A stretch of 64,000 bases of DNA, from the NCBI RefSeq assembly GCF_054482525.1, contig NZ_CM137006.1, one strand, 5' to 3'. Of this stretch, positions 5,427-17,838 are shown in pieces. The position numbers and the translations under genes are program-made. Position 1 is the first letter of the stretch. Each line of letters starts with the position of its first letter. The notes under the pieces are model-generated. The model saw nothing but the letters and a program-made list of their open reading frames with translations, ran no database searches and was not told the DNA's origin.

Positions 5427-7504
<2,078 letters not shown>

Positions 7505-12044: not shown

Positions 12045-12327
12045 AAAAGTCTCTGTGAATGTTTATTCAACTGATGTCTTTTAACCTAAACCACTTTCAC
12101 GTTAGAAAGCAAGGGCTTTTTTATATATTTTATGGCGATGGATTTGTTTAATGAATGAGCGGGGAAAGGAGGGGGCTAAGAGGACTGACCTCTAAGCTGA
12201 CGGCACCAAAAATAGCGAAGCCTGGATTTTTCGACTCACTGACAATATCTTGATCTACAAACTAATTAATAAATAGTTAATTAACGCCCATCATTGTACA
12301 ATGAAATGTACAAAAGAGGAGATTAAC

Positions 12328-12579
12328 ATGCGTACAATTAGCTACAGCGAAGCGCGTCAGAATTTGTCGGCAACAATGATGAAAGCCGTTGATGATCATG
12401 CCCCGATCCTTATTACTCGTCAGAATGGAGAGGCTTGTGTTCTGATGTCACTCGAAGAATACAACTCCCTGGAGGAGACGGCTTATCTACTGCGTTCCCC
12501 CGCTAACGCCCGGAGATTGATGGACTCAATCGATAGCCTGAAATCTGGCAAAGGAACGGAAAAGGACATCATTGAGTGA
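12328..12579 (+). CDS. yefM: Type II antitoxin YefM
   Basis: ORF 12301..12579; start [21 protein letters not shown] gives 83 aa; stop overlaps the GTG start of yoeB (GTGA). Confidence 0.9.
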
Positions 12580-12830
12580 AACTAATCTGGTCTGAGGAAT
12601 CATGGGATGATTATCTGTACTGGCAGGAAACAGATAAGCGAATTGTTAAAAAGATCAATGAACTTATCAAAGATACCCGCAGAACGCCATTTGAAGGTAA
12701 GGGGAAGCCAGAACCCCTGAAACATAATTTGTCAGGTTTCTGGTCCCGACGCATTACAGAGGAGCACCGTCTGGTATACGCGGTTACCGACGATTCACTG
12801 CTCATTGCAGCATGTCGTTATCATTATTGA
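12576..12830 (+). CDS. yoeB: Type II toxin YoeB (ribosome-dependent mRNA interferase)
   Basis: 84-aa [25 protein letters not shown]...; GTG start overlapping the yefM stop. Confidence 0.9.
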
Positions 12831-14712: not shown

Positions 14713-14978
14713 AGAAAAATTATTATGACAAGCCTCTCATTCTCTTGTCATTTCCCCCCCATTTAGGCACAATGCGCCGCTGTCAAAAAATGACTAAAAA
14801 CCGACGTTTAATTAGCGTCGGTTATTTTTTGCTTCAAACCAATCATTCATACCAAGAGGCCGGGCTTCGTACCGGATAGATATTTACTAAAAATCGACAG
14901 TTGTTGTCGCTGAGGAATCCAAAAAAATGGGGCAATTTTTTGCTTACGCGACGGTTATCACCGTAAAGGAGAATGACC

Positions 14979-16337
14979 ATGTCGCATAACGTTACTCCAA
15001 ACACCTCTCGCGTGGAATTGCGTAAAACGCTTACGTTAGTTCCGGTTGTAATGATGGGTCTTGCCTATATGCAGCCGATGACGCTGTTTGATACATTTGG
15101 TATCGTTTCAGGCCTCACGGATGGTCATGTGCCGACAGCCTATGCGTTCGCATTGATTGCGATCCTGTTTACGGCTCTGAGCTACGGGAAGCTGGTTCGC
15201 CGCTATCCTTCTGCTGGCTCTGCATACACTTACGCCCAGAAATCCATTAGCCCGACTGTCGGCTTTATGGTGGGTTGGTCTTCTCTGCTCGACTATCTGT
15301 TCGCGCCGATGATCAACATTCTACTGGCGAAAATCTATTTTGAAGCTCTGGTGCCTTCCATTCCATCGTGGATGTTTGTGGTGGCGCTGGTGGCCTTTAT
15401 GACCGCCTTTAACCTGCGTAGTCTGAAATCCGTAGCGAACTTCAACACTGTAATCGTCGTGTTGCAGGTAGTGCTGATCGCGGTGATTCTGGGCATGGTT
15501 GTTTATGGCGTATTTGAAGGCGAAGGCGCGGGTACGCTGGCGAGCACTCGTCCGTTCTGGTCTGGCGATGCGCATGTTATCCCGATGATTACCGGGGCGA
15601 CAATCCTGTGCTTCTCCTTTACCGGCTTTGACGGCATCAGCAACCTGTCGGAAGAAACCAAAGATGCAGAGCGCGTGATCCCGCGTGCGATTTTCCTGAC
15701 CGCGCTGATCGGCGGCATGATCTTCATCTTTGCAACTTACTTCCTGCAGCTGTACTTCCCGGATATCTCTCGCTTTAAAGATCCGGATGCGTCACAGCCT
15801 GAAATCATGCTGTATGTTGCGGGTAAAGCGTTCCAGGTTGGCGCGCTGATCTTCTCCACCATTACCGTACTGGCGTCCGGTATGGCGGCGCACGCAGGCG
15901 TAGCGCGTCTGATGTACGTAATGGGTCGTGACGGCGTATTCCCGAAAAGCTTCTTCGGTTATGTACACCCGAAATGGCGTACTCCGGCGATGAACATCAT
16001 CCTGGTTGGCGCGATTGCCTTGCTGGCAATCAACTTCGACCTGGTAATGGCTACGGCGCTGATTAACTTTGGTGCGCTGGTGGCGTTCACCTTTGTTAAC
16101 CTGTCGGTTATCTCGCAGTTCTGGATCCGTGAGAAGCGTAATAAGACGCTGAAAGATCACTTCCAGTATCTGTTCCTGCCGATGTGTGGTGCGCTGACTG
16201 TAGGTGCGCTGTGGGTTAATCTGGAAGAAAGCTCAATGGTTCTGGGTCTGATCTGGGCTGCTATTGGTCTGATTTACCTGGCTTGCGTCACCAAGAGCTT
16301 CCGTAACCCGGTTCCGCAGTACGAAGACGTTGCATAA
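14979..16337 (+). CDS. plaP: Putrescine importer (APC-superfamily amino acid/polyamine permease)
   Basis: ORF 14973..16337; start [16 protein letters not shown] gives 452 aa; 12-TM permease. Confidence 0.87.
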
Positions 16338-16370
16338 TCTTACAAGCCGGATGACATAATCATCCGGTAA

Positions 16371-16408
16371 ATCTCAAAAAGCCGGAGTTTGTCGCTCCGG
16401 TTTTTTTG
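16371..16408. terminator. Bidirectional terminator between convergent plaP and sbcB
   Basis: Hairpin gccggagtttgtcgctccgg followed by T7; a second hairpin ccggatgacataatcatccgg lies at 16346..16366. Only 74 bp separate plaP and sbcB. Confidence 0.7.
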
Positions 16409-16410
16409 TT

Positions 16411-17838
16411 TCAGACGATCTCTTCCGCGTACTGCCAAAGTGCTTTTAACAGCGCCACTTTCTCTTTGTCATCGGCATATTGTTGTGCCAGCATCTGCAA
16501 TTCATCTGCATAGCCCTGCAAAAACTCTGGCGTGAAGACCTGGCGGCGGTGCTCCAGCCAGCGTTGCTGCTCGGCATAATCCAGCGTCCCCGGGAAGTTG
16601 CGCGCCCGATAATTGAACAACAGCTTTTCAATCCGTTTATCAACAAAAGTGATATCCAGTGCCGGTAAATTACGCGGCTCGGTTTCCAGCACAATTTTCA
16701 TTGCTGCACGATCGGCGTCACTGAAAAAGCCATTATAAAGCTGTGCATCCACGTTATCTGAAGGCGTAAACGGTTCGGCTTCCGCGAATATCGCCACCAC
16801 TTTTTCACGCACTTGCGGATTTTCACGCAGAATTTTCAGGTTATCGAGGCAATGCTGACGATTAATTCCCAGTCGGTCGGCATCTTCCGGGCGTAGCGTA
16901 TTCGCCTGGGCCAGCACCGGACATTTATTGATATGCACCAGTTTAACCGGAACGGCGGCGTTATCGCCAAGATCGGCTTTTGCGGTATATAGACGCTCGC
17001 GCAATGTGTCGCTATCCAGTTCCAGTAATGGCGAAATGTCTCCTGCCAAATCCACCATAATTACGGCATTGCGATTTTCAGGATGCCACGCCAGCGGTGC
17101 CACCCAGCTTGTATTGCCGCGCCATGCCCCAAACATTCCGGAAACGTGAACCAGGGGTTTCATCTGCGGAACATCAATCAACGCCATCAGTTTGTGTTTA
17201 TTACGATGGGTAAAGAGATAATCAAACAGGCGTGGCTGACGCGTTTTTACCAGTTTTGCCATCGCAATAGTGGCGTACACATCAGCCATCGCATCGTGGG
17301 CGTTGCTATGTTCAATACCATTCGCTTTGGTTAAATGCTCAAGGCGAAAGCTCGGTAGACCGTCATCATTTTCAGGCCAGTTTATTCCTTCCGGGCGCAG
17401 GGCATAGCAGGCACGCATAACATCCAGTAAATCCCAGCGCGAGTTATCATGCTGCCAGCTCCAGGCGTAAGGATCGTAGAAATTACGATAAAAAACGTTG
17501 CGTGTGACTTCGTCGTCGAAACGCACATTGTTGTAGCCCAGAATACAGGTCTTCGGTACGGTAAAAAGCGAGTGAATACGGGCGGCAAATGCGGCTTCGT
17601 TTTCTCCTTTCGCCCGAGCTTCCTGCGGGGTAATACCGGTAATTAATACTGCTCCAGGCTGGGGTAAATAGTCATCCGCGGGCTTGCAGTAAAAGACTTC
17701 GGGTTCGCCGATGACATTGAATTCGTCATCGGTGCGAATGGCTGCGAACTGTGCAGGGCGATCTAACGCGGGGTGCGTGCCAAAGGTTTCGTAATCGTGA
17801 AACAAAAAGGTAGATTGTTGCTTACCGTCATTCATCAT
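16411..17838 (-). CDS. sbcB: Exodeoxyribonuclease I
   Basis: ORF 16411..17886; start MMNDGKQQSTFLFHDYETFG (DEDDh exonuclease motif) gives 475 aa. Confidence 0.94.
   Translation of the reverse strand: MMNDGKQQSTFLFHDYETFGTHPALDRPAQFAAIRTDDEFNVIGEPEVFYCKPADDYLPQPGAVLITGITPQEARAKGENEAAFAARIHSLFTVPKTCILGYNNVRFDDEVTRNVFYRNFYDPYAWSWQHDNSRWDLLDVMRACYALRPEGINWPENDDGLPSFRLEHLTKANGIEHSNAHDAMADVYATIAMAKLVKTRQPRLFDYLFTHRNKHKLMALIDVPQMKPLVHVSGMFGAWRGNTSWVAPLAWHPENRNAVIMVDLAGDISPLLELDSDTLRERLYTAKADLGDNAAVPVKLVHINKCPVLAQANTLRPEDADRLGINRQHCLDNLKILRENPQVREKVVAIFAEAEPFTPSDNVDAQLYNGFFSDADRAAMKIVLETEPRNLPALDITFVDKRIEKLLFNYRARNFPGTLDYAEQQRWLEHRRQVFTPEFLQGYADELQMLAQQYADDKEKVALLKALWQYAEEIV

Follow-up and report, generated by a model that had tools for sequence, protein, structure and literature searches.

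An empty site between plaP and sbcB in Escherichia coli that probably represents an old, inherited allele lacking tsuAB

In the 64,000-nucleotide stretch of DNA analysed here, which we refer to as the window, the genes plaP and sbcB converge on a short spacer, in the place of which the strain K-12 has tsuA and tsuB, also termed yeeE and yeeD. TsuA (YeeE) is a membrane channel for thiosulfate and TsuB (YeeD) its essential TusA-like cytoplasmic partner (PMC11073785; PMC11582611). The locus raises the question of whether both genes were recently deleted in this isolate, whether their absence is an inherited state, and whether the genes were lost from or gained at this position.

Organization of the plaP-sbcB junction

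The spacer encompasses 73 bp (positions 16338-16410, defined by sequence and alignment); in a preliminary description of the window, its length had been given as 74 bp. It is preceded by plaP, located on the plus strand (14979-16337, with the longest open reading frame starting at 14973), which encodes a putrescine:H+ symporter of 452 residues. Its product matches K-12 PlaP with 100% identity over the 452 residues, and the gene is annotated as plaP in RefSeq genomes that are 100% identical. On the opposite side, the minus-strand gene sbcB (16411-17838, with the longest open reading frame extending to 17886) encodes the 475-residue exodeoxyribonuclease I, as assigned by RefSeq annotation and by a match to the NCBIfam model NF008746 (E 4e-245), and its product is 99.2% identical to K-12 SbcB. 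The genes located downstream of sbcB match DacD and SbmC in NCBIfam. The stop codon of plaP (TAA) resides at 16335-16337 and that of sbcB at 16411-16413, where the plus strand reads TCA, equivalent to TGA on the coding strand. Both the position of the stop codons and the identity of the genes confirm that plaP and sbcB are directly convergent, as had been proposed in the preliminary description.

Comparison with K-12

In K-12 MG1655, the order of genes is sbcB (b2011), tsuB/yeeD (b2012), tsuA/yeeE (b2013) and plaP (b2014), and the stop codons of sbcB and plaP are 1520 bp apart. The preliminary description had placed yeeE and yeeD between plaP and sbcB in K-12, which is correct for MG1655, where the two outer genes are not adjacent. 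The absence of yeeD and yeeE that it had deduced for the window is equally evident: the 73-bp spacer does not contain any open reading frame, and tblastn searches with the K-12 proteins retrieved neither a gene for the YeeE/DUF395 membrane protein TsuA of about 352 residues (best E 1.6) nor one for the TusA-like TsuB of about 75 residues (best E 0.37) anywhere in the 64-kb window.

Apart from this difference, the region is organized as in MG1655, with yefM-yoeB, yeeZ, yeeY, yoeI and plaP followed by sbcB, dacD, sbmC and yeeA in the same order and orientation. The similarity extends into the intergenic region, where the first 58 bp past K-12 plaP contain a terminator whose CCGGAG...CTCCGGTTTTTTT core (CTCCGG followed by seven T) is the same, whereas nothing in the window corresponds to the remaining 1462 bp. 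This missing stretch begins just past the T-run of the plaP terminator, ends at the base preceding the sbcB stop codon and contains the AT-rich promoter region of tsuA, tsuA, tsuB and a GC-rich hairpin located between tsuB and the sbcB stop codon. K-12 further differs from the window in the absence of the first of two spacer hairpins described below and in its sbcB stop codon, which is TAA instead of TGA.

The flanks of the window are as distant from K-12 (97.8% and 98.3% identity) as they are from a B2 strain lacking tsuAB (97.6% and 98.3% identity). When counted in segments of 150 bp along plaP and sbcB, mismatches between the window and either of these strains do not show any spike of divergence beside the junction, and a signature of recombination or import at this position was thus rejected. 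The breakpoints are free of IS remnants, target-site duplications and direct repeats, with the spacer containing only the two hairpins. With no such scar, an IS-mediated deletion of tsuAB was dismissed as well; the IS200C of other genomes was inserted secondarily, at a site that had already been empty.

Hairpins and predicted terminator of the spacer

The spacer forms two hairpins, with folding energies of -31.6 kcal/mol on the plus strand (z = -5.7) and -27.0 kcal/mol on the minus strand (z = -4.0) when compared to shuffled controls. Hairpin 1 (16346-16368), defined by folding and by comparison of spacers, has the sequence GCCGGATGA-cataa-TCATCCGGT, is REP-like and is not followed by a T-run. 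It is missing from K-12 and present in E. whittamii, E. albertii and the strain E69. We also noted the similarity of this hairpin (GCCGGATGA...TCATCCGGT) to the ends of REP elements. In C. amalonaticus S646, the corresponding position, located between plaP and the terminator, is taken by a more complete REP-like palindrome (GGCCGGATGACG...CGCCATCCGGC), which has no equivalent in K-12.

Hairpin 2 (16376-16407), with the sequence AAAAAG-CCGGAG-tttgtcg-CTCCGG-TTTTTTT (five A and a G, stem arms of 6 bp enclosing a loop of 7 nucleotides, and seven T), is predicted from its fold and a consensus scan to be a classical bidirectional rho-independent terminator, in which a GC-rich stem-loop is framed by an A-run upstream and a T-run downstream, giving a hairpin followed by a U-tract on either strand, and which would serve plaP on the plus and sbcB on the minus strand. 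The bidirectional terminator that the preliminary description had placed in the spacer matches this prediction. In the consensus scan the element was flagged on the minus strand only, since on the plus strand the A-run and the T-run can pair, thereby lengthening the stem and consuming the T tail that is required by the rule. The CCGGAG/CTCCGG core with its T-run is retained downstream of plaP in Escherichia, Salmonella, Citrobacter, Enterobacter and Trabulsiella; in species containing tsuAB, it likewise precedes tsuA. From its sequence and its conservation across genera, we infer that in the allele lacking tsuAB the terminator of plaP doubles as terminator of sbcB.

Frequency among E. coli genomes

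To what extent the empty site is shared by other strains was determined in 5426 complete E. coli genomes. An 81-bp spacer query, counted if at least 80% of its length was matched at 90-100% identity, identified the empty site in 1214 genomes (22%), and in 782 genomes a 271-bp query covering the junction was matched in one piece. A K-12-like tsuAB segment was found in 4209 genomes. Together, both states account for 5423 of the 5426 genomes, so that essentially no genome with an empty site carries K-12-like tsuAB elsewhere; a relocation of the genes, for which these numbers leave room in a handful of cases at most, was thus rejected. The preliminary description had regarded the absence of yeeD and yeeE as a strain-level difference. 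It is indeed a difference in gene content, but one that is common and distinguishes lineages instead of strains.

The window displays the features that define the tsuAB-null haplotype of Escherichia, namely a spacer of 73-79 bp containing hairpin 1 (CCGGATGA...TCATCCGG) followed by the CCGGAG/CTCCGG terminator, which abuts the sbcB stop codon. Named strains with an empty site include PCN033 and Nissle 1917, ATCC 25922, O25b:H4-ST131, O2:K1:H7 APEC and O2:H6, with the latter five all belonging to phylogroup B2. Named strains with tsuAB include K-12 (phylogroup A), EDL933 (phylogroup E) and SMS-3-5 (phylogroup F). Among these few strains, on which the phylogroup assignments rest, the presence of tsuAB is patchy across phylogroups and does not follow one clean split.

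The 3.1-kb stretch from plaP to sbcB matches E. coli PCN033, SCU-102 and 19KM1776 with 100% identity, and positions 1-57231 of the window are 99.99% identical to PCN033, a porcine ExPEC strain of serotype O11 and phylogroup D (PMC4578781). PCN033 contains the same tsuAB-null spacer with 100% identity and the B2 strains Nissle 1917, ATCC 25922 and ST131 with 97.5% identity. The junction is an ordinary accessory-gene polymorphism, which is already visible in public annotations and identical in the published PCN033 genome. The paper describing this genome mentions neither yeeE nor thiosulfate (PMC4578781), and our literature searches did not return any work pairing yeeE with phylogroup B2.

A separate observation concerns the approximately 430 genomes (1214 minus 782), many of them labelled ST131, that contain the empty-site spacer in an interrupted junction. 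In every sampled case, the interruption was found at the base following the T-run of the terminator. In the one genome inspected, E. coli ESC53083, an IS200C resides exactly after the T-run (6172-6881 of the locus), which corresponds to the position just past 16410 in the window, and this location would fit a targeting of hairpins or terminators by IS200. The junction of the window is devoid of an IS.

Distribution beyond E. coli

We next turn to the relatives of E. coli, for which species representatives of GTDB were scanned using PlaP as anchor and the best 80 loci were annotated by tblastn. Every Escherichia other than E. coli among these 80 loci, which do not include E. fergusonii, E. marmotae and E. 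ruysiae, contains an empty site. Among the loci listed, directly convergent plaP and sbcB are found in E. albertii, E. whittamii, the strain E69 (a divergent 'E. coli' with 92.5% DNA identity to the window), Salmonella enterica subsp. arizonae, many Citrobacter, most Enterobacter, Trabulsiella, Atlantibacter and others. As in the window, tsuAB is absent in E. albertii, E. whittamii, S. arizonae, Citrobacter and Enterobacter with this arrangement, and a CCGGAG...CTCCGG bidirectional terminator is located between the two stop codons. When aligned by eye, the window, E. whittamii, E. albertii and E69 have a spacer of 73-79 bp with both hairpins in common, and the null haplotype is therefore orthologous among them and old. 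Conversely, outside Escherichia the length of the spacer varies between 51 and 134 bp and the sequences surrounding the terminator differ, suggesting that these spacers have independent histories. Hairpin 1 is common to the Escherichia spacers only.

The arrangement containing tsuAB looks to be old as well. Among the loci listed, tsuA-tsuB occupies precisely the same position in Citrobacter amalonaticus, C. sedlakii, C. youngae CCUG 30791, Kluyvera, Pseudocitrobacter, Superficieibacter, Pseudenterobacter, Siccibacter and a Leclercia MAG. These genera have the plaP terminator, motifs in the promoter region (TTAATAAC...TTAGAGAATTTGGTTATTGG...AATAATTT) and a hairpin (CCCTCCGCC...GGCGGAGGG) that separates tsuB from sbcB in common. 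Their nucleotide identity to K-12 ranges from 74 to 80% for tsuA and from 76 to 82% for sbcB, and the correlation between the two (r = 0.83) is as expected for vertical co-inheritance. The GC content of tsuA and tsuB (50.4%) is like that of their flanks, and a foreign composition of the genes was rejected on these grounds.

Besides the distribution of tsuAB, we noticed that the identity of PlaP to the protein of the window is bimodal across the PlaP-matching loci of Enterobacteriaceae. Values of 96-100% are found in E. albertii, Salmonella arizonae, several Citrobacter, Enterobacter cloacae DSM 26481, Kluyvera georgiana, Pluralibacter and Pseudocitrobacter, and values of 87-89% in the congeners E. 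cloacae M-7, K. ascorbata and C. amalonaticus, in which SbcB and YeeY do not show a reduced identity. The same split is manifested in the nucleotide sequences of plaP (about 88% compared to about 82%), suggesting that alleles of this gene may have been exchanged between genera.

Loss or gain of tsuAB

From these comparisons, we consider it very probable that the window carries a tsuAB-null haplotype that is of long standing in Escherichia, inherited as an allele and widespread, and not a new deletion, with a history that most likely involves ancestral tsuAB and repeated loss. We regard the locus as the site of an ancient presence/absence polymorphism, which most likely results from an old loss. 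In the underlying scenario, tsuAB at the plaP-sbcB site would have been ancestral to the group of Escherichia, Citrobacter and Kluyvera and would subsequently have been lost repeatedly, which fits the differing lengths of empty spacers among genera. Within Escherichia, a single loss allele, consisting of hairpin 1 and the terminator, would have persisted beside the allele containing tsuAB. The now patchy occurrence of both alleles among E. coli phylogroups could plausibly have arisen from the high recombination of the adjoining his-gnd-O-antigen region. The gnd/O-antigen region, which is well known as a hot spot of recombination in E. coli, is located at a distance of about 12 kb, and this proximity would explain the observed pattern.

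The direction of change is favoured to be loss but is not proven, and the opposite direction deserves consideration as a possible, though less likely, history. In this case, the empty site would be ancestral for Escherichia or the entire family, tsuAB would have been gained later by the ancestor of most E. coli through homologous recombination with a donor containing the genes, and the window would have lost nothing. Such a gain would account for the directly convergent plaP and sbcB with the same terminator core in the three non-coli Escherichia lineages retrieved, in Salmonella arizonae and in most other genera sampled, and simple parsimony within Escherichia would favour an empty ancestor, as would the empty site of the early-branching phylogroup B2. 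It is harder to reconcile with the finding that at least seven genera have tsuAB in this very position, with conserved spacers and a divergence that tracks sbcB (r = 0.83). The genes also lack a compositional anomaly, the divergence of the K-12 flanks from the window is not raised, and phylogroup F, represented by SMS-3-5, contains tsuAB, so that there is no clean separation into basal and derived groups. Whichever direction applies, the empty state of the window is inherited and does not reflect a new event.

A recent deletion specific to this isolate, which would at first sight be suggested by the mere absence of 1462 bp relative to K-12, is refuted by the population counts, as 1214 complete genomes, which represent at least phylogroups B2 and D, contain the spacer with 95-100% identity, and it is made still more improbable by the occurrence of the same spacer in E. 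whittamii, E. albertii and E69 and by a junction without flanking IS, repeat or scar. Finally, an assembly or collapse artefact, for which nothing but the strong hairpins of the junction would speak, can be practically dismissed in light of the same contiguous junction in 782 independently finished genomes, three of which are 100% identical over 3.1 kb.

Functional implications

In K-12, TsuAB is needed for growth on thiosulfate only if cysPUWA is deleted (PMC11073785; PMC11582611). The preliminary description had proposed a difference in the uptake of sulfur sources, which applies insofar as the tsuAB genes are missing, whereas the effect is probably cryptic given the redundancy with CysPUWA found in K-12 (PMC11073785). 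The strain would thus be devoid of TsuAB as back-up route and rely on CysP/Sbp-CysUWA, with cysPUWA being located outside of the window. Since CysPUWA is the main thiosulfate importer, any phenotype is expected to be weak, and we would not anticipate an overt one or a defect in growth on thiosulfate unless the CysUWA ABC system were impaired.

It is conceivable, but in our view improbable, that tsuAB is a long-lived polymorphism kept in Escherichia by niche-dependent selection, in which case the major B2 ExPEC lineages ST131, ST73 and ST95 and some lineages of phylogroup D would systematically be without a CysPUWA-independent importer of thiosulfate. If such selection were acting, lineages would differ in how they scavenge sulfur in the gut or in the tissues of the host. 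On a practical level, the E. coli core genome does not include TsuAB, the alternative importer studied in K-12, and about 22% of finished genomes lack it. This should be borne in mind when carrying the genetics of sulfur assimilation or metabolic models from K-12 to strains such as Nissle 1917, ATCC 25922 or ST131.

Further features of the window

The identity to PCN033 ends just past a tRNA-Ser next to mtfA, and the remainder of the window (57232-64000) constitutes the end of a lambdoid prophage. This segment contains open reading frames for an integrase (57269-58294) and an exonuclease (58556-61027), both on the minus strand, and regulators of the Cro/CI type, and it is 99.9% identical to prophages of ST131 and other strains. 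The identity to PCN033 up to position 57231 followed by a prophage identifies the source of the DNA as a relative of PCN033 with an extra prophage.

On the other side of the junction, the window, K-12 and the B2 strain all contain the toxin-antitoxin pair yefM-yoeB (12301-12830 in the window), which is flanked by hisL and yeeZ. In SMS-3-5, yefM-yoeB is not annotated and the gap between hisL and yeeZ is only about 430 bp (247-674 of the locus), which constitutes another small presence/absence polymorphism nearby. The region at about 30092-39910 encompasses a tRNA-Asn (30092-30167), a tyrosine integrase (30329-31591), a frameshifted integrase, hypothetical genes and a 4.2-kb gene coding for an Rhs core protein (35729-39910), and is a tRNA-Asn-associated island that is annotated likewise in PCN033. 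Finally, an 8.6-kb gene on the minus strand (47135-55747) encodes a protein with Ig-like domains and contains, around 50673-52712, tandem repeats with a period of 609 bp and about 90% identity.
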